DNA of 64,000 nucleotides from Candidatus Latescibacterota bacterium (GCA_965223905.1 CBDCXV010000011.1:1216001-1280000), one strand, 5' to 3'. Shown: positions 16,150 to 30,043, counted from the first letter of the stretch. Notes: generated from the sequence alone by a model not told the origin. Translations and numbers: made by a program.

Positions 16150-19361
<3,212 letters not shown>

Positions 19362-19701: not shown

Positions 19702-20805
19702 ATGTCCAGACGCAGACTCCCCATCGGCATCCAGACCTTCCGCGAGATCCGCGGGCAGGACTGCTACTACGTCGACAAAACCCCGTACATCCGGCGCCTG
19801 GTCGACGGGGCCAAGCACTACTTCCTCTCCCGCCCCCGGCGCTTCGGCAAGAGCCTGTTCCTCGACACCTGCAAGGAACTCTTCGAGGGCAACGAACCGC
19901 TCTTCGAGGGGCTGGACATCCACGAGCACTGGGACTGGTCGGCGCGGCACCCGGTGGTGCGCCTCGACTTCAGCAGCTCCAACATCCGGACACCGGAAGA
20001 CGTGCGGACGGAAGTGGCGGCGCAATTGAGCGTCATGGAGAATCAAGCGGAGATACCCCCCCGCGACGACGACCCGTCCTTCCGTTTCGGGCGCCTGATC
20101 GAGGCGCTGCACGAGCGCAGCGGCCGGCGCGTGGCGGTTCTCGTGGACGAATACGAGAAGCCGATCCTGGACAACCTCGACACCCCCGAAACCGCCCGCG
20201 CCATCCGCGACTACCTGTTCGGTTTCTACGCGACGACCAAGTCGAGCGACGCCGACATCCATTTCAGTCTTTTTACCGGGGTTCACAAGTTTCCCCTGGC
20301 CGGACCGTTCTCCGGCCTCAACAACCTGATCGACATCACCCTGGACCCGCGCTATTCCGCCATCTGCGGCTATACCGATTCGGACCTGGACGCAGTGTTC
20401 GCCCCGGAGTTGCCCGGCCTCGACCGGGACGAGATCCGCGACTGGTACAACGGCTACAACTGGCTGGGCGAGGAGAAGGTGTACCACCCCTTCGACATGC
20501 TGATGCTCTTCGACAAGCGGGAGTTCGGCGCCGAGCGGTTCGAGACGGACGCCCCGGCGTTCCTGGTCGAAACCCTGACCGGTCTCGGGTTCCGCTCCAC
20601 AGATGCGGACGACATGCTAAGTAGCCAGGACCTGCTGTCCTTGTTAGACGTGGAGGATATGACGACGGAAGCGCTGCTGTTTCAGGCCGGCTACATCACG
20701 ATTACGAAGGATAGGAACCTTGGCGGAAACCTGTTCTGCTACATGGGTTATCCCAACCGGGCGGCGCGCTTTCGCCTCGACAGGGCACTGCGAGGGCGCA
20801 ATTGA
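19702..20805 (+). pseudogene. AAA-ATPase-like protein copy 1, nuclease domain deleted
   Basis: LPIGIQTF, YYVDKT, SRPRRFGKS. The C-terminal tail (QLKEKRYADKY...VERA*) survives out of frame at ~20798-20921. Confidence 0.85.
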
Positions 20806-20944
20806 AGGAGAAACGCTACGCCGACAAGTACCGCGGCTTGGGCCGGCCGATCTACCTGGTGGCCGTCGAGTTCAGCAGGGAGACCCGCAACCTGGCGGCC
20901 TTCGCCGTCGAGCGGGCTTGAAGAGCCGGAACAAGCTGACATCC

Positions 20945-22492
20945 ATGCCCCGACGCAGACTCCCCATAGGCATCCAGACCTTCCGCAGGATTCGCGAGGA
21001 AAACTGCTACTACGTCGACAAGACCGCGTACATCCGGCGGCTGCTCGACGAGGGCACGCACTACTTCCTCTCCCGCCCCCGGCGCTTCGGCAAGAGCCTG
21101 TTCCTCGACACCTGCAAGGACCTGTTCGAGGGCAACGAGCCCCTGTTCGAGGGGCTGCACATCCACGATCGCTGGGACTGGTCGGTTCGCTATCCCGTCG
21201 TGCGGCTCGATCTGGGCAGCGGGAATTGCATCGAGCCGGGGCATCTGCACGAGGACGTGATGGCCCAACTGGAGGACGAGGCGGAAGCAGCCGGCATTGC
21301 GACCCGCTACGACACCGCGCCAGCCCGTTTCCGCCACCTGATCCGGGCGCTGCACCGGCAGGTCGGCCAGCCCGTTGTCGTGCTGGTCGATGAGTATGAC
21401 AAGCCGATCCTGGACGCGCTGGAAAGGCCCGACGTCGCCCGCGCCAACCGGGACTATCTGCGCGGCCTCTACGCGACGATCAAGTCCAGCGACGCCCACG
21501 TCCGGTTCACCTTGCTCACGGGCGTCAGCAAGTTCTCCAAGGTCAGCCTGTTCTCCGGCCTCAACAACCTCAAGGACATCACCCTGGACCCGCGCTATTC
21601 CGCCATCTGCGGCTATACCGAGGCCGACCTGGATACCGTGTTCGCGCCGGAGTTGCCCGGCCTCGACCGGGACCAGATCCGCGACTGGTACAACGGCTAC
21701 AGTTGGCTCGGCGAGGAGAACGTGTACAACCCCTTCGACATCCTGCTGCTCTTCGACAGCCGCAAGTTCAAGGCCCACTGGTTCGAGACCGGTACGCCCT
21801 CGTTTCTGGTCGAAACCCTGTTCCGGCGCCGGATCGGCTCCTTGTCCCTGGAAAACATGGTGGGCACCGACGATCTGCTGTCGAAGTTCGACGTCGACGA
21901 CATCGCCACCGAGGCGCTTCTGTTCCAGACCGGCTATCTCACCATCGCCCGCGCCGAGCCGCGCGGCGGGGAGATGTTCTATCGTCTGGGCTACCCGAAC
22001 CGGGAGGTTCGGCAGAGCCTGAACCGAAGCCTTCTGAATCACCTGACGGGAAGCCCGCCGCAGCAGTCGGAGCACAGAGCCCGGCTCCACGACCTGCTGC
22101 TCGCCAACGACTTCGCCGGGCTCGAGACCCTGTTCCGCGCCTTCTTCGCCAGTATCCCCTACGAGTGGTACACCCGCAACGACATCTCCCGCTACGAGGG
22201 CTACTACGCCAGCGTGTTCTACTCGTACTTCGCGGCCCTGGAATCGGACGTCACCGTCGAGGACAGCAGCAGCCACGGCCGCCTCGACATGGCGGTCCGC
22301 TTCAACGACAGCGTCTACCTCTTCGAGTTCAAGGTGGTCGAGATGGCCCCGGAGGGCGCGGCCATGGCGCAGTTGAAGGAGAGGCGCTACGCCGACAAGT
22401 ACCGCGCCCCGGGCCAGCCCATCTACCTGATTGCCGTCGAGTTCAGCAGGGAAGCCCGCAATCTGGCGGCCTTCGACGTCGAGCGGGTCTGA
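20945..22492 (+). CDS. AAA-ATPase-like + PD-(D/E)XK nuclease (PDDEXK_9-type) copy 2
   Basis: RPRRFGKS, DEYDKP, YPNREV, EGYY, GRLD...FEFK, QLKERRY. Confidence 0.9.
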   Translation: MPRRRLPIGIQTFRRIREENCYYVDKTAYIRRLLDEGTHYFLSRPRRFGKSLFLDTCKDLFEGNEPLFEGLHIHDRWDWSVRYPVVRLDLGSGNCIEPGHLHEDVMAQLEDEAEAAGIATRYDTAPARFRHLIRALHRQVGQPVVVLVDEYDKPILDALERPDVARANRDYLRGLYATIKSSDAHVRFTLLTGVSKFSKVSLFSGLNNLKDITLDPRYSAICGYTEADLDTVFAPELPGLDRDQIRDWYNGYSWLGEENVYNPFDILLLFDSRKFKAHWFETGTPSFLVETLFRRRIGSLSLENMVGTDDLLSKFDVDDIATEALLFQTGYLTIARAEPRGGEMFYRLGYPNREVRQSLNRSLLNHLTGSPPQQSEHRARLHDLLLANDFAGLETLFRAFFASIPYEWYTRNDISRYEGYYASVFYSYFAALESDVTVEDSSSHGRLDMAVRFNDSVYLFEFKVVEMAPEGAAMAQLKERRYADKYRAPGQPIYLIAVEFSREARNLAAFDVERV

Positions 22493-22515
22493 GGATCCAG
22501 AACAAGGTGATGGCC

Positions 22516-24063
22516 ATGCCCAGACGCAGACTCCCCATCGGCATCCAGACCTTCCGCGAGATCCGCGAGCAGGACTGCTACTACGTCGACAAGACCGCGT
22601 ACATCCGGCGGCTGCTCGACGGGGGCAAGCACTACTTCCTGTCGCGGCCCCGGCGCTTCGGCAAGAGCCTGTTCCTCGACACCTGCAAGGAGCTCTTCGA
22701 GGGCAACGAACCCCTGTTCGAGGGGCTGGACATCCACGAGCACTGGGACTGGTCGGCGCGGCACCCGGTCGTGCGCCTCGACTTCAGCAGCGGCAACTAC
22801 CAGGCACCTGAAGACGTGCGGACGGAAGTGGCGGCGCAATTGAGCGTCATGGAGGACGAAGCGGAGGTAACCCCCCGCGACAACGATCCGTCCCTCCGCT
22901 TCCGGCACTTGGTCAAGGAGCTCCACGAGCGCACCGGCCGGCGCGTGGCGGTCCTCGTGGACGAGTACGACAAGCCGATCCTCGACAGGCTCGACGCGCC
23001 CGAGGTCGCCCGCGCCAATCGCGACTTTCTGCGCAGCCTGTATTCGACCGTGAAGTTCTCCGACGCGCACATCCGTTTCAGCTTCCTTACCGGGGTGAGC
23101 AAGTTCTCCAAGGTCAGCCTGTTCTCCGGCCTCAACAACCTGATCGACATCACCCTGGACGCGGAGTACTCCTCCATCTGCGGCTATACCGATTCGGACC
23201 TGGACGCGGTCTTCGCGCCGGAACTCCCCGGTCTCGACCGGGACGAGATCCGCGACTGGTACAACGGCTACAACTGGCTCGGCGAGGAGAAGGTCTACAA
23301 CCCCTTCGACATCCTGCTACTGTTTCGACGCCGCCAGTTCGGCGCCTGGTGGTTCGAGACCGGCACCCCGGCGTTCCTGGTGGAAACGCTGTTCCAGCGG
23401 AGAGTGAGTTCGCTGGCCCTCGACGACATGCTGGGAAGCAGCGACCTGCTGTCGGCCTTCGACGTCGATCACATCGCGACGGAGGCGCTGCTGTTCCAGA
23501 CCGGCTACCTGACCATTCGCCGCACCGAGCCGCGCGGCCGGCGGATGTATTACCGGCTGGGCTATCCCAACCAGGAGGTGAGGCAGAGCCTGAACGAGAG
23601 CCTGCTGAACCGCATGACGGGGGATGACTCGCGCCAGGAGGCGAACAGCGCCCGGCTCTACGACCTGCTGCTCGCCAACGACTTTGCCGGGCTCGAGGCC
23701 CTGTTCCAGGCGTTTTTCGCCAGCATCCCCTACGAGTGGTACACCAACAACGACATCGCCGGCTACGAGGGCTACTACGCCAGCGTGTTCTACTCGTACT
23801 TCGCGGCGCTGGGATTGGACGTTACCGTGGAGGACAGCAGCAGCCACGGCCGCCTCGACATGGCGGTCCGCTTCAACGACAACGTCTACCTCTTCGAGTT
23901 CAAGGTGGTCGAGATGGCGCCGGAGGGCGCGGCCATGGCGCAGTTGAAGGAGAGGCGCTACGCCGACAAGTACCGCGCCCCGGGCCGGCCCATCTACCTG
24001 GTTGCCGTCGAGTTCAGCAAGGAAACCCGCAACCTGGCCGCCTTCGGCGTCGAGAGGGCCTGA
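22516..24063 (+). CDS. AAA-ATPase-like + PD-(D/E)XK nuclease copy 3
   Basis: Same motifs as copy 2; its 3' ~400 bp are nearly identical to copy 2. Confidence 0.9.
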   Translation: MPRRRLPIGIQTFREIREQDCYYVDKTAYIRRLLDGGKHYFLSRPRRFGKSLFLDTCKELFEGNEPLFEGLDIHEHWDWSARHPVVRLDFSSGNYQAPEDVRTEVAAQLSVMEDEAEVTPRDNDPSLRFRHLVKELHERTGRRVAVLVDEYDKPILDRLDAPEVARANRDFLRSLYSTVKFSDAHIRFSFLTGVSKFSKVSLFSGLNNLIDITLDAEYSSICGYTDSDLDAVFAPELPGLDRDEIRDWYNGYNWLGEEKVYNPFDILLLFRRRQFGAWWFETGTPAFLVETLFQRRVSSLALDDMLGSSDLLSAFDVDHIATEALLFQTGYLTIRRTEPRGRRMYYRLGYPNQEVRQSLNESLLNRMTGDDSRQEANSARLYDLLLANDFAGLEALFQAFFASIPYEWYTNNDIAGYEGYYASVFYSYFAALGLDVTVEDSSSHGRLDMAVRFNDNVYLFEFKVVEMAPEGAAMAQLKERRYADKYRAPGRPIYLVAVEFSKETRNLAAFGVERA

Positions 24064-24121: not shown

Positions 24122-25867
<1,746 letters not shown>

Positions 25868-25969
25868 TAGTTGATTTCAGGTATGGAAAATGCTCCGACC
25901 GCGGCCAGGCGGCCTTGCCCCGGCTCAGGCGAGAGTTGATTTTAAGTTAAACTTGAGAAAGGTACCCCG

Positions 25970-26215
25970 ATGCCAGAGATAATCAGTGCCAAACAGCTTC
26001 GAGAGCGCCTGCAGGATGTCGTAGAAAAAGTGCGGCACGGGGAGCGATTTACCGTTCTGTACCGCAGTCGTCCGGCCTTCGACATCGTCCCGGTTGGCAG
26101 TCCACCTATCGAAAGTGTGCCGCTGGAATCGGATTCGCTATACCAGGCCCCAGCCGTTGGTGCATCCGAATCGGGGGACGCTGCCGCACGGCATGACGAG
26201 GTGCTGTACCGGTGA
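25970..26215 (+). CDS. Phd/YefM-family antitoxin
   Basis: ISAKQLR..L..VVEKV..GERFTV; near-palindromic operator TTAAGTTAAACTTGA at ~25942-25956. Confidence 0.8.
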   Translation: MPEIISAKQLRERLQDVVEKVRHGERFTVLYRSRPAFDIVPVGSPPIESVPLESDSLYQAPAVGASESGDAAARHDEVLYR

Positions 26216-26619
26216 GGCAAATGTTCGTGGATACGGCCGCATGGGTTGCGGCCGCGGATAGCGGTGATACGGCGGGTTCGGCTGTACGGGAAGCTCGGGA
26301 TCAATGGCTGTCGTCTGGAGGCCTGCTGACGACGACCGACTATGTGATCGACGAAACTCTTACCACCATCCGGTTCCGCCTTGGTCTTAATGCTGCTGAA
26401 GCTTGGTGGCTGCAAATCGACGGCTCGGTTCGACTGCGGATCGAGTCCATTGACGAACCGCGAAGAGAACGGGCGCGGTCACTCTTCTTTGGCTATCGGG
26501 ATAAGGAATTCTCCTATACCGACTGCTGCAGCTTTGCCCTCATGCGAGAATTGCGAATTCGGCGGGCATTGACGTTGGACCATCACTTCCGACAGATGGG
26601 ATTTGAAGTTATTCCATAA
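26212..26619 (+). CDS. VapC PIN-domain toxin
   Basis: FVDTAAW, VIDET, SYTDCCS, LTLDHHF; GTGA overlap with the antitoxin. Confidence 0.9.
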   Translation: MRQMFVDTAAWVAAADSGDTAGSAVREARDQWLSSGGLLTTTDYVIDETLTTIRFRLGLNAAEAWWLQIDGSVRLRIESIDEPRRERARSLFFGYRDKEFSYTDCCSFALMRELRIRRALTLDHHFRQMGFEVIP

Positions 26620-26723: not shown

Positions 26724-28493
26724 ATGAGCACCGAGCCGGCTCCCGCCTCTTCCCGCCCCGCGCTGCCCGACTACATCTCGGCGCGCATGATCAACGAGTA
26801 CGTCTACTGCCCGCGGCTGTTCTACTTCGAGCAGGTCGAGGGAGTGTTCGTCCACAACGAACACACCGTGGAAGGGGCCGTGCAGCACAAGCGCGTCGAC
26901 AAGGAGGGCAAGTCCGCCCCCGGTCCGGAGGAAGAAACGGACGAGCCGGTCGTGGTGCGCTCGATGACCTTGTCCTCCGAGAAGCACCGCGTCATCGCCA
27001 AGCTCGACCTGGCGGAGTTCGACCACGGCCGTGCCACGCCGGTCGACTACAAGCACGGCCGGCCCATGTCCGACGACGAAGGCGTGCAGGCGTGGCCGAC
27101 CGACCGCGTTCAGCTCGCCGTCCAGGCGCTCGTTCTGCGCGCCAACGGCTACCGCTGTGAGGAAGGTTTCGTTTTCTACCAGAAGACGCGGCAGAGAGTG
27201 CGGATCGCGTTCGACGACGGGACGATCGCCGAAGCGGAGCGGGCCATCGCCGGCGCCTGGGACACCGCGGCCGCACAAGAGATGCCCCCGCCGCTAATCG
27301 ACTCCCCCAAGTGCCCCGGATGTTCGCTGGTCGGCATCTGCCTGCCGGACGAGACCTGGAGCCTGTGGTCGCGGGACGACGGCGAGGCCGAGCAGCTCGA
27401 CCTGTTCGAGACGCGTCCGGGAAAACGCCCAAAGCCGCGGGCCGGGGAACCCCGGTTGCTGGTAACCCCGCGCGACGACCTGCGGCCACTCTACCTCAAC
27501 ACCCAGAGGCTGCGCGTCGGAAAGACCGGCGGCCTGCTCCGCATCAAGGAGCGCGACAAGGTCGTCCAGGAGGCGCGCATCAACGAGATCTGCCAGGTCA
27601 ACCTGATGGGCGCCGTCCAGATCAGCACCCAGGCCGTGCAGGAGCTGTGCCGCGCCGAAAAACCGATCTGCTACTTCTCCCAGGGCGGATGGTTCTACGG
27701 CGTAACCACCGGGCTCAGCACCAAGAACGTCTTTTTGAGGAGAACGCAGTTCCGTCTCGCGGAGGAGGCCCGCTTCTGTCTGCGGATTGCCAGGACGCTG
27801 GTCGCGGGCAAGATCCGCAATCAGCGAACCATGCTGCTGCGCAACCACGTCGAGCCGCCGAAGCCGGAGCTGCAGGAATTGAAGTGGCTCGTTGCCCGCG
27901 CCGAAACCGCGGAGTCCCTTGAAGAGCTGCTCGGTTTCGAAGGCTGGGCGGCGCGCATCTACTTCGGGCTCTTCGCCGGCATGTTGAAGCGCGACCGCTC
28001 AGAACAGGAGGACCCGGAGTTCACATTCGATTTCCAGGCCCGCAACCGAAGACCGCCCCGCGACCCGGTCAACGCCCTGCTGTCCCTCGGCTACAGCCTG
28101 CTGGCCAAGGACCTGACCATCGCCTGTTACGCGGTCGGCTTCGATCCGATGATGGGCTTCTTCCACCAGCCGCGGCATGGCCGGCCGGCCCTCGCCCTGG
28201 ACCTGATGGAGCCGCTGCGGCCGTTGATCGCCGACTCCGCCGTGCTCAGCACGGTGAACACGAAGATGGTTTCCGAGCGCGATTTCGTGACCGCGGGACC
28301 GGCGGTGTCGCTGACCGCCGCGGGCAGGAAAAGCTTTCTGCGGGCGTACGAGGCACGGATGGACACCCTCGTCACGCATCCCCTCTTCGATTACCGCGTC
28401 AGCTACCGGCGCCTGCTCGAAATCCAGGCGCGCCTTCTGGCCAAAACGCTCGAGGGCGAGCTGGACGAATACCCGGTTTTCGTGACGCGATGA
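26724..28493 (+). CDS. cas1: Cas4-Cas1 fusion
   Basis: Cas4: YCPR, KLD, DYK, Q, C..C.....C Fe-S ligands. Cas1: EG.AAR.YF, RRPPRDPVNALLS.GY, GFFH, LALDLME. Confidence 0.95.
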   Translation: MSTEPAPASSRPALPDYISARMINEYVYCPRLFYFEQVEGVFVHNEHTVEGAVQHKRVDKEGKSAPGPEEETDEPVVVRSMTLSSEKHRVIAKLDLAEFDHGRATPVDYKHGRPMSDDEGVQAWPTDRVQLAVQALVLRANGYRCEEGFVFYQKTRQRVRIAFDDGTIAEAERAIAGAWDTAAAQEMPPPLIDSPKCPGCSLVGICLPDETWSLWSRDDGEAEQLDLFETRPGKRPKPRAGEPRLLVTPRDDLRPLYLNTQRLRVGKTGGLLRIKERDKVVQEARINEICQVNLMGAVQISTQAVQELCRAEKPICYFSQGGWFYGVTTGLSTKNVFLRRTQFRLAEEARFCLRIARTLVAGKIRNQRTMLLRNHVEPPKPELQELKWLVARAETAESLEELLGFEGWAARIYFGLFAGMLKRDRSEQEDPEFTFDFQARNRRPPRDPVNALLSLGYSLLAKDLTIACYAVGFDPMMGFFHQPRHGRPALALDLMEPLRPLIADSAVLSTVNTKMVSERDFVTAGPAVSLTAAGRKSFLRAYEARMDTLVTHPLFDYRVSYRRLLEIQARLLAKTLEGELDEYPVFVTR

Positions 28494-28675
28494 GCTTGCG
28501 AGCGGCGAGGCGACGCGCCAAGTCCCGCCGGTGCTCGCGTTGCCGCAAGTGACGTATTTTCAATGAGATCCATACGGGAGACGATCAGGGCACCAATCGA
28601 TTTAGAGGGGGCGGCGGTCGCCGCTCGCATTTACGCTTCCAGGTGTTTGATAATACTATAGATAGGGTGCAGGCT
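28494..28675 (+). promoter_or_regulatory. CRISPR leader
   Basis: Between cas1 and repeat 1; GCGAGC/GCTCGC boxes and an AT-rich TTTGATAATACTATAG segment. Confidence 0.75.
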
Positions 28676-30043
28676 GTTTCCGCGATCTATTGGTCGCGGC
28701 CTCATTGAAGCGACGATGCCCACTCCTACGAGCATGTCCGGCTCCCCCATGTTTCCGCGATCTATTGGTCGCGGCCTCATTGAAGCTCGTGTTACGTTAT
28801 ACGTGCACGCGTGCGGAAGGCGGTTTCCGCGATCTATTGGTCGCGGCCTCATTGAAGCTCGTGTTACGTTATACGTGCACGCGTGCGGAAGGCGGGTTTC
28901 CGCGATCTATTGGTCGCGGCCTCATTGAAGCCCTGCTCGTTGAGTCGGCCCTGGAGGATTCGGTCATCCGAGTTTCCGCGATCTATTGGTCGCGGCCTCA
29001 TTGAAGCATCCGTTACCCGATGCGATCTATCGCCGGCTGCTGCGAGTTTCCGCGATCTTTTGGTCGCGGCCTCATTGAAGCGTATCCATTCGCTATCGGG
29101 ACTGGATAGGGATTCCCCACGTTTCCGCGATCTTTTGGTCGCGGCCTCATTGAAGCCACTCGGTGATAAGGAACACCTCACGCAACCACTGCATGTTTCC
29201 GCGATCTTTTGGTCGCGGCCTCATTGAAGCGCGCTGTTGCATGGCGACAACTGCCCGGCGCGGGTCGGGTTTCCGCGATCTTTTGGTCGCGGCCTCATTG
29301 AAGCTCGGGCCAACAGGGGCAGGCAGGCACACCGTGAGAGGCGTTTCCGCGATCTTTTGGTCGCGGCCTCATTGAAGCTTTGTGCATCCGCATCGCGCAG
29401 CGAGACATCGTTTCAGGTTTCCGCGATCTTTTGGTCGCGGCCTCATTGAAGCGAGTAGACGATGGCCCTCTTCCCCCCGTCTCCCCGCACGTTTCCGCGA
29501 TCTTTTGGTCGCGGCCTCATTGAAGCTCCAGGTTGAAACCTCGATGTCGTAAAGCGTCCATCCGAGTTTCCGCGATCTTTTGGTCGCGGCCTCATTGAAG
29601 CAAGTAACAGGGATTCATGGAATTTCGCAGGAGCTATGTTTCCGCGATCTTTTGGTCGCGGCCTCATTGAAGCCAATCGCCATATGCAAACCTGTGCCAA
29701 GTTCCAACGGGTTTCCGCGATCTTTTGGTCGCGGCCTCATTGAAGCGCTGCTCCGTCCTGGTCGATGTAGCTGATCGCGTCCGAGTTTCCGCGATCTTTT
29801 GGTCGCGGCCTCATTGAAGCCGACACTGAAGGAAAGTATGTCGGAGTCGATGTGTTCCAAGTTTCCGCGATCTTTTGGTCGCGGCCTCATTGAAGCCTGA
29901 AACCGCTCACCGCTTGCCTCGAACCCAAACCGGAAGTTTCCGCGATCTTTTGGTCGCGGCCTCATTGAAGCACCACGAAGTCAAAAGTGTCATCGGGGTT
30001 TTCGGTCGTTTCCGCGATCTTTTGGTCGCGGCCTCATTGAAGC
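28676..30043 (+). CRISPR. Type I-G CRISPR array: 19 x 36 bp repeats, 18 spacers of 36-40 bp
   Basis: Repeat GTTTCCGCGATCT(A/T)TTGGTCGCGGCCTCATTGAAGC with hairpin CCGCGATC/GGTCGCGG. Repeats 1-5 have loop TATT; repeats 6-19 have TTTT. Confidence 0.98.

Follow-up and report, generated by a model that had tools for sequence, protein, structure and literature searches.

A CRISPR array in the genome of a Candidatus Latescibacterota bacterium raises the question of what sets the 3' end of a spacer, because 13 of its 18 spacers end in the triplet C-purine-N, against approximately 16-18% expected. An initial annotation of this DNA had read the bias as a sequence-defined, PAM-distal end produced by type I-G spacer acquisition, and had offered it as an explanation for the variable length of the spacers. 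Here we consider this reading in light of the gene context of the array, the spacer ends of related arrays, and published accounts of spacer acquisition in other systems.

The array and its surrounding locus

The array lies within a stretch of 64,000 nt (GCA_965223905.1 CBDCXV010000011.1:1216001-1280000; genome of 7.9 Mb), to which we refer as the window. The features that bear on the question are the following:

16168..19361, + strand: Cas3g without approximately its first 190 residues, then a type I-G Cas3-extension protein (TIGR02621, 511.5 bits against a cut-off of 400; NF049934)
19702..24063, + strand: three AAA-ATPase_like genes, two of them with PDDEXK_9 nuclease domains (PF09820, PF08011); the start of the third gene is uncertain, with overlapping ORF calls
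24225..25523, + strand: ISL3-family transposase, directly upstream of cas2 (NF033550, 298.9 bits)
25540..25950, + strand: cas2 (PF09827, 64.9 bits, match at 25592-25795)
25970..26619, + strand: Phd-family antitoxin and PIN-domain toxin pair, between cas2 and cas4/1 (TIGR01552, PF01850)
26724..28493, + strand: Cas4g/Cas1g fusion gene (cas4/1), an ORF of 589 aa (NF049935, 738.8 bits against a cut-off of 560, profile positions 1-546; Pfam Cas_Cas4 and Cas_Cas1)
28494..28675, + strand: leader of 182 nt, from the cas4/1 stop codon to the first repeat, its 3' end being an AT-rich stretch followed by GGGTGCAGGCT
28676..30043, + strand: CRISPR array of 19 repeats of 36 nt ending in ATTGAAGC, with 18 spacers of 36-40 nt
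28712..30007, + strand: the 18 spacers, 13 of which end in C-purine-N (none of the three 36-nt spacers)
28787..28895, + strand: spacers 2 and 3 with the intervening repeat, recovered as a repeat-family match of 72 nt at 100% identity
30244..30292, + strand: degenerate repeat remnant (71% identity), approximately 200 nt past the last intact repeat

The 36-nt repeat unit reads GTTTCCGCGATCT[A/T]TTGGTCGCGGCCTCATTGAAGC and is found in 19 copies on the + strand; a search of the entire 7.9 Mb genome recovers only 19 matches to it, all inside 28676-30043, making this the sole array with this repeat. A 3' ATTGAAGC tag is typical of type I-G repeats, and the combination looked for in this subtype, namely a 36-37 nt repeat with a stem and this tag, is present. 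Position 14 of the repeat is A in the five leader-proximal copies and T in the other 14, which fits growth of the array at its leader end, with new units copied from the first repeat. The spacers themselves are heterogeneous in length, with three of 36 nt, two of 37 nt, seven of 38 nt, four of 39 nt and two of 40 nt. Spacers 2 and 3 represent one sequence in two lengths (36 and 37 nt), the longer copy having an additional G at its 3' end; the shorter copy ends in GCG and the longer in CGG, and hence the states without and with the motif are both seen for this spacer.

The Cas4/1 protein has as its nearest solved structure that of Geobacter sulfurreducens Cas4/1 (7MI4; E = 7e-138), and the alignment of the two shows that the D...DYK motif of the Cas4 domain and the E and H...D stretches of the Cas1 domain are conserved in the protein from the window. 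A related locus is found in another genome of the same genus, here termed G011, the Cas4/1 of which is identical at 550 of 572 residues (96%, 22 substitutions), and the array of which contains 99 repeats that differ from the repeat of the window at three positions. In both loci cas2 is upstream of cas4/1, and the trio of AAA-ATPase_like genes occupies an equivalent place. In G011 cas2 stops approximately 150 nt before cas4/1, a spacing too tight for a Phd/PIN pair; no match to a PIN domain was recovered among the ORFs scanned at that locus, and none of eight locus ORFs scanned there is an ISL3 transposase.

The profile for Cas3g (TIGR02621) is matched only over its positions 163-854, and the alignment of this protein with the 982-aa Cas3g of G011 (34% identity) begins at residue 192 of the latter; accordingly, the cas3g gene of the window looks truncated at its 5' end. 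A profile search for Cas7g (TIGR02570) yielded no match in the window, and the ORFs upstream of cas3g are housekeeping genes. Elsewhere in the genome, Cas7g is found on another contig beside a different cas set, along with a weak match approximately 800 kb away. Given the absence of Cas7g from the window and the truncation of Cas3g, the locus is, to judge by its gene content, a type I-G adaptation module with its array, the interference side of which is damaged.

Base preference at the 3' ends of the spacers

The last three bases of spacers 1-18 are CAT, GCG, CGG, CGA, CGA, CAC, CAT, CGG, GGC, CAG, CAC, CGA, TAT, CGG, CGA, CAA, GAA and GTC. Our recount reproduces exactly this list as given in the initial annotation, together with its 13 C-purine-N ends and its 16 purines at position -2 (8 A and 8 G, with one C and one T), and likewise bears out the range of lengths, the lack of a base bias at any 5' position of the spacers in the array, and the TCCGA end shared by spacers 4, 12 and 15. 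Position -3 is occupied by 13 C, four G and one T (p = 2.7e-4 for the excess of C), and position -1 is unbiased. Since spacers 2 and 3 are the same sequence, the array provides 17 independent spacers, with the motif in 12 or 13 of them depending on the copy that is counted; C-purine is found at 16% of interior spacer positions, and against this rate 12/17 corresponds to a binomial p of 9e-7. We also scanned 1000 motif definitions, combining 10 offsets at both ends with 100 base-class pairs, using 300 shuffles as a null. The best of these definitions was exactly C at -3 with a purine at -2 (p = 6e-8), and none of the 300 shuffles was as extreme, the lowest null p being 3.4e-5, which leaves a margin of approximately 500-fold. 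The claim that the bias goes beyond chance is hence upheld.

The bias recurs in G011, where 27 of 91 spacers end in C-purine-N against a background of 16% (p = 8.5e-4), and 43 of the 91 have C at -3 (p = 8.5e-4); these 91 come from 98 intervals, aberrant leader-proximal units having been dropped by the filter. For a wider view, one genome scan and one metagenome scan were run for arrays whose repeat has the same 3' part; they yielded 103 arrays, with 69 different repeats among them, and a total of 2506 unique spacers. Spacers outside 28-50 nt, with N, or beside a repeat with more than two mismatches were dropped, and duplicates were recognized by their first 25 nt. The exact repeat type of the window had no match in a narrow metagenome scan. 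With the motif fixed beforehand, and the expectation taken from phase-matched interior positions, 570 of the 2506 spacers (22.7%) end in C-purine-N against 442.7 expected (17.7%; z = 6.7), such that the enrichment that the initial annotation had proposed to look for in larger related sets is indeed found there; C at -3 alone is present in 35.5% against 31.3%.

This pooled excess is seen with each first base of the repeat (C, z = 3.2; G, z = 5.0; A, z = 3.1), in spacers from either source (genome, z = 5.2; metagenome, z = 4.3) and in the two stem families (z = 4.4 and 5.0), and it persists without the six arrays that contribute most to it (z = 4.0). When individual arrays are compared to their own background, 49 lie above it and 20 below. 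Across 13 offsets anchored at the 3' end, the C-purine rate is highest at -3 (0.227) and lowest at -2 (0.123), and a purine at -2 is favored both with C at -3 (64.0% vs 56.5% at interior positions) and without it (54.1% vs 46.1%). Codon phase was considered as a cause of the bias and rejected, the enrichment being present within each phase class. The arrays differ from each other in rate (chi-square p = 0.015 over 56 arrays), and one related array has C at -3 in 16 of its 20 spacers. The idea that the bias is episodic along arrays was likewise set aside, with no clustering of neighbors in 32 arrays (Stouffer z = 0.38) and a cluster permutation p of 0.065 in G011. Overall, a few arrays show the bias strongly, and in the repeat family as a whole it is slight, with an excess of approximately 5 percentage points. 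The description of the end as sequence-defined was thus an overstatement, given that a 96%-identical Cas4/Cas1 yields 27/91 and the repeat family 22.7% against 17.7%. The rate of this array is probably inflated, since the array was picked for looking extreme; even so, a beta-binomial based on 56 related arrays, with a mean of 0.23 and an sd of 0.047, assigns at least 13/18 a probability of 9.6e-5. The unusual height of the rate is in part real and probably in part an effect of this choice.

The other arrays of the same genome show a related pattern. An orphan array with a type I-G-like repeat has C-purine-N in 5 of 12 spacers and C at -3 in 8 of 12, and an array beside a separate cas4-cas1-cas2 set has 7 of 23 and 11 of 23 respectively, giving 12/35 and 19/35 for these two Cas4-type arrays taken together. 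In contrast, a type I-E-like array of this genome is at background, with C-purine-N in 15 of 73 spacers and C at -3 in 22 of 73. The bias therefore tracks Cas4-type adaptation and not the host in general. The two type I-C-like arrays of G011 show C-purine-N in 3 of 14 and 11 of 47 spacers, neither of which is significant.

The motif is also linked to spacer length. In the window it is found in none of the three spacers of 36 nt vs 13 of the 15 of at least 37 nt (p = 0.012). In the pooled set its frequency is 398/1892 (21.0%) at up to 37 nt, 129/491 (26.3%) at 38-39 nt and 43/123 (35.0%) at 40 nt or more, and an array-stratified comparison over 50 related arrays gives an odds ratio of 1.55 (p = 0.0018); this link is a correlation in natural arrays. 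The proposed connection of the motif with the variable length is hence seen in the window and in these 50 arrays, but not in G011, where the shorter and longer spacers show no such effect (8/28 vs 19/63).

Multiple indirect lines of evidence suggest that the biased end is the PAM-distal one, as the initial annotation had maintained. These are the leader, which is conserved beside cas4/1, the polarity of the repeat and the distribution of its variants, the decayed repeat at the far end of the array, and the relationship of the spacers to codon phase. Alignment of the 2506 related spacers by their 5' ends gives a codon-phase information of 0.0062 bits, compared to 0.0005 bits for alignment by their 3' ends; the null values did not exceed 0.00036. 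Such a phase lock is expected if a constant distance separates the 5' end from a PAM coupled to codon phase, with the 3' end floating. Searches for protospacers with the whole array gave no match in phage records at E up to 1, and one pattern scan of IMG/VR likewise gave none. In the genome itself, the spacers of the window and of G011 yielded just chance matches of 16-24 nt, and in 76 genomes of the family, 132 of the class and 168 of the phylum only other arrays and short chance matches were recovered. Spacer 15 has a match in each of three genomes, with agreement at 26 of the 28 bases that begin the spacer; this was rejected as a protospacer, since at the one locus checked the match lies in a 4HBT thioesterase gene, without similarity beyond it. 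Pairs of the same spacer with differing 3' ends, from which the bases following the shorter end could be read, are rare, with only two among 2506 prefix groups in addition to the pair in the window.

A potential mirror signal is seen at the 5' end in the related set, where G is present at spacer position 3 in 38.7% of the spacers against 33.0% at interior positions of the same phase, and in 50.5% of those of G011. This G would be in keeping with a preference acting at each of the two 3' ends that are integrated; alternatively, it could come from flipped spacers, by analogy with the type I-B study discussed below. The two signals, G at position 3 and C at -3, showed no association, whether compared spacer by spacer (odds ratio 1.05, p = 0.58) or array by array (38 arrays, Spearman 0.10).

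Explanations for the bias and for its strength

We consider it probable that this is an ordinary type I-G array following the third-last-cytosine rule of the Haloarcula hispanica type I-B system, in an unusually strong form. Under this rule, the PAM end would be set by the Cas4 domain, and the other 3' overhang would be shortened inside a loose ruler window, of approximately 36-40 nt in this case. The last cut, or the integration, would then prefer a point two bases past a cytosine and, in this array, also one base past a purine. Spacers trimmed all the way to the 36-nt minimum would be those without the motif, and the longer ones would have stopped at C-purine. The analogy with type I-B and the link to length suggest that the bias is caused by acquisition and not by later selection; more tentatively, the Cas1 domain of Cas4/1 may be the trimming enzyme. 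The counterweights to this reading are that the excess in the family is of only about 5 points, that natural arrays have already passed through selection, and that the window was chosen as extreme.

The strength of the bias calls for a separate account. The G011 system combines a 96%-identical Cas4/1 with a rate of 30%, vs 72% in the window (Fisher p = 0.001), implying that the protein alone does not set the rate of the window. Part of this gap is likely to reflect the selection of an extreme case. The rest could come from the 22 substitutions, from the first repeat base and the end of the leader (GCT followed by G in the window, GCC followed by C in G011), from the insertions around cas2, or from a host nuclease. 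The AAA-ATPase/PD-(D/E)XK genes, which the initial annotation had put forward as a potential source of the bias, are common to both loci, including the one with the weaker bias, and hence do not account for the difference.

Beyond this array, a C three bases from the integrating 3'-OH might be a conserved trait of Cas4-partnered Cas1 integrases (I-B, I-G and perhaps I-C), read in the Cas1 substrate channel at both ends and tunable in strength; we offer this as a tentative generalization that is possible but rather unlikely. The notion of tunable strength comes from the 96%-identical enzyme, with C at -3 in 47% of the spacers in one species vs 72% in the other. The species with 72% is the one in which the interference genes appear to have been lost, and in which the insertion sequence and the toxin-antitoxin pair border cas2 and cas4/1.

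Among the alternatives, one would assign the strong bias to a factor of the host or of the locus, for example a 3'-to-5' exonuclease stalling at C-purine, or altered expression of cas2 and cas4/1 following the insertions of the IS and the toxin-antitoxin pair, with Cas4/1 functioning only as a ruler. The disparity between 13/18 in the window and 27/91 in the 96%-identical system (p = 0.001) is in its favor, as are the presence of the ISL3 and Phd/PIN insertions flanking cas2 in the window, neither being seen in the G011 locus, and the confinement of the enrichment to spacers above the minimum length, which fits trimming that stops early. The two other Cas4-type arrays of the genome, one of which adjoins a separate cas4-cas1-cas2 set, also have C at -3 in 19 of 35 spacers. 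However, the type I-E-like array of the same genome lacks an excess of C (22/73), such that the factor cannot be one acting throughout the host, and the rate in the two other arrays (34%) is nearer to that of G011 than to that of the window (p = 0.019). Furthermore, G011 also has the AAA-ATPase/PD-(D/E)XK genes, and no candidate exonuclease was identified. Taken together, we regard this explanation as unlikely. That C-purine-N spacers simply survive better after acquisition, for example through completion of the R-loop or handling of the crRNA, appears quite improbable. Our data do come from natural arrays throughout and not from an assay of unselected acquisition; nevertheless, the C at -3 of H. 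hispanica arose under conditions that its authors regard as imposing no selection on new spacers, and it tracked a cytosine that had been moved (Li et al. 2017, PMC5416893), a link to length is expected of cutting rather than of targeting, and the locus has a truncated Cas3g and no Cas7g nearby.

Two further alternatives remain. Chance combined with post hoc choice of the motif, with no mechanism behind it, has in its support that the motif was defined after looking at the array, that a very large number of windows had been scanned to arrive at this array, and that the rate in its relatives is far lower. Against this, the same fixed motif is enriched in independent sets, namely G011, the Cas4-type arrays of the same genome and the pooled spacers (z = 6.7), and the margin over the best of 300 shuffles is approximately 500-fold, making chance a very improbable explanation. 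We attach next to no credence to an artefact of a misplaced repeat boundary or wrong orientation, by which the biased end would in reality be repeat sequence or the PAM-proximal end. In its favor, the searches described above recovered no protospacer that would fix the PAM side. Against it, the last three spacer positions differ from one spacer of the array to the next, in contrast to the repeat, which is constant starting with its first base, and across arrays this first base can be G, C or A with enrichment in each class. The conserved leader beside cas4/1, the variant in the five leader-proximal repeats and the locking of codon phase to the 5' end only likewise argue for the orientation used here.

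Comparison with known adaptation systems

Two of the systems available for comparison are of type I-G and have the same fusion protein. In one of them, that of Methanosarcina barkeri, non-PAM overhangs are cut back to 4-7 nt by the Cas1 domain of Cas4/1. This trimming is described, using four substrates that varied the position of the PAM, as length dependent and sequence independent (Dhingra and Sashital 2023, JBC 299:105178, PMC10504553). The variable length of its non-PAM overhang and its leader-side integration fit variable spacers with a free PAM-distal end as in the window; unlike the reported trimming, this end shows a sequence bias in the window and its relatives. If the conserved Cas1 preference considered above is real, the sequence-independent trimming of type I-G Cas1 would hide a base preference that sets crRNA length. 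The same report describes the G. sulfurreducens Cas4/1 as being without such a Cas1 nuclease activity, and this, together with the sequence independence reported for M. barkeri, counts against the reading preferred here. The catalytic motifs are conserved between that protein and the one in the window, and the predominant spacer length of G. sulfurreducens, 36 bp, corresponds to the minimum length in our array. As described in the text of Almendros et al. 2019 (PMC6547450), the analysis of that system, formerly termed I-U, covered the upstream flank alone and identified a TTN PAM. Full-text searches of the main texts of the literature turned up no description of preferred bases at the PAM-distal end of type I-G spacers.

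A sequence preference inside the PAM-distal end of the spacer is also known from the E. coli type I-E system, where it takes the form of an AA, the acquisition affecting motif, at the spacer's 3' end (cited via Li et al. 2017, PMC5416893). The motif differs from that seen here, and E. coli has a rigid 32-bp ruler, such that its motif alters the frequency with which a protospacer is taken up and not the position of its end. In Pyrococcus furiosus, the downstream motif, 'NW', is reportedly located outside the spacer, whereas the bias described here is inside it. That system resembles the present one in belonging to the Cas4 family, but it has two separate Cas4 proteins, Cas4-1 and Cas4-2, in place of a Cas4/Cas1 fusion; both ends of the prespacer are processed in it, and the resulting length is nuclease-dependent (Garrett et al. 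2020, PMC7293040).

The nearest parallel to the bias itself is the H. hispanica type I-B system (Li et al. 2017, NAR 45:4642, PMC5416893), and the third-last-cytosine rule that we favor for the present array was already demonstrated there by experiment. The rule is hence not new, the initial annotation having cited only the motifs of E. coli and Pyrococcus. In its mechanistic reading, that annotation was heading the right way. Among 37,628 new H. hispanica spacers, C made up 47.5% at the third-last base, compared to 26.8% for the source DNA; the authors regard their set-up as exerting no selection on new spacers. The same bias was noted in approximately 600 haloarchaeal spacers from databases, with T the least used base. 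No bias was reported downstream of the protospacer, and moving or mutating the cytosine changed the end of the spacer. The model put forward by the authors is that of a relaxed ruler, with fine-tuning through cleavage two bases past a cytosine, and they asked how general it might be.

The two systems agree in favoring C as the third-last base of the spacer and in making little use of T there, as well as in being Cas4-bearing type I systems with heterogeneous spacers (32-39 bp in H. hispanica, 36-40 nt here). In the present arrays the end concerned is probably PAM-distal, as it is in H. hispanica, and the correlation with length suggests that its position may likewise depend on the cytosine. 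The mirror G at position 3 in the flipped spacers of H. hispanica also has a counterpart in the enrichment of G in our related set. The purine preference at -2 is an additional feature of the present arrays that does not figure in the text of Li et al. 2017 (PMC5416893). With respect to rates, C is found at -3 in 72% of the spacers of the window and in 35.5% vs 31.3% in the repeat family. The H. hispanica system is archaeal, with a TTC PAM and primed acquisition, and was studied through fresh spacers and mutation tests, whereas ours is a bacterial type I-G system with a fused Cas4/Cas1, examined through natural arrays alone.

[quoted passage not shown] The practical gain would be small, in that the lengths of spacers and crRNAs, as well as integrase preferences, could be predicted a little more accurately; the main value is a sharp experimental question, namely whether the nuclease of the Cas1 domain cuts two bases past a cytosine. 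On the question of generality that Li et al. 2017 (PMC5416893) asked of a cytosine-tuned ruler with variable spacer size, the present data suggest an extension of the rule from an archaeal type I-B system to a bacterial type I-G system with a fused Cas4/Cas1.

Spacer ends across the repeat family

Among the related arrays, that of L129 (repeat GTATTCCGCGGCTAATCGCCGCGGCCTCATTGAAGC) carries a cytosine at the third position from the spacer 3' end in 16 of its 20 spacers, and is the strongest array in this respect apart from that of the window itself; a purine preference at -2 is not clear in these 20 spacers. When the spacers pooled from the arrays sharing the 3' part of the repeat (L033-L249) were aligned at their 5' ends, their base composition displayed a period of three, which was lost upon alignment at the 3' ends. 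This restriction of the period to the 5' alignment implies a coupling of this repeat family's PAM to codon phase in these GC-rich genomes, the outcome expected if most TTN sites come from TTC or GAA codons. In the pooled set, guanine occupies spacer position 3 in 38.7% of cases, versus 33.0% at interior positions of the same phase, and reaches 50.5% in the same-genus relative G011. The position-3 guanine enrichment mirrors, on the opposite strand, the cytosine at -3.

Repeat and spacer variants within arrays

The window array (+ strand) displays internal variation at the following positions:
28676-29007: five leader-proximal repeats with A at repeat position 14
29046-30043: the other 14 repeats, with T at this position
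28787-28895: spacers 2 and 3, identical in sequence, respectively 36 and 37 nt in length

The A/T split is the trace of a mutation in the first repeat, copied on in later integrations. Spacers 2 and 3 differ by a single additional 3' G, which adjoins the first G of the repeat; they could represent one protospacer acquired twice with different trimming, or the unit could have been duplicated and a one-base slip have occurred thereafter. At the leader end of the 99-repeat array of G011 (L033:10673-11300) the first eight units are aberrant, with "spacers" of 20-77 nt, some containing partial repeats, which points to errors of integration, to recombination or to misassembly at the newest end of the array.

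The genome of the window has at least four further CRISPR arrays (C9:1756-3132, C10:92083-92766, C10:1255282-1256813 and C11:366045-370351). Of these four, two have type I-E-like repeats of 28-29 nt, in about 26 and 74 copies. The third is an orphan with 13 copies of a type I-G-like repeat, and the last, adjoining cas4, cas1 and cas2, has 24 copies of a 37-nt repeat.

Gene content of the window locus

16168-18444: Cas3g, lacking a counterpart to roughly the first 190 residues of the 982-aa protein of G011
19702-24063: three AAA-ATPase_like paralogues (PF09820), of which two also carry a PDDEXK_9 nuclease domain (PF08011)
24225-26619: ISL3 transposase directly upstream of cas2, together with an inserted Phd/PIN toxin-antitoxin pair that separates cas2 from cas4/1

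The missing N-terminal part of Cas3g takes in the region preceding the DExH motif, and no Cas7g was found near this gene; the locus looks to have lost its interference side, and its adaptation genes look intact. Neither the transposase nor the toxin-antitoxin pair was seen in the G011 locus. The AAA-ATPase_like trio lies between the Cas3-extension gene and cas2-cas4/1 in both genomes (G011 counterpart, L033:4270-8366), an arrangement shared despite only 34% identity between their Cas3g proteins, and may be a conserved accessory of this type I-G lineage.
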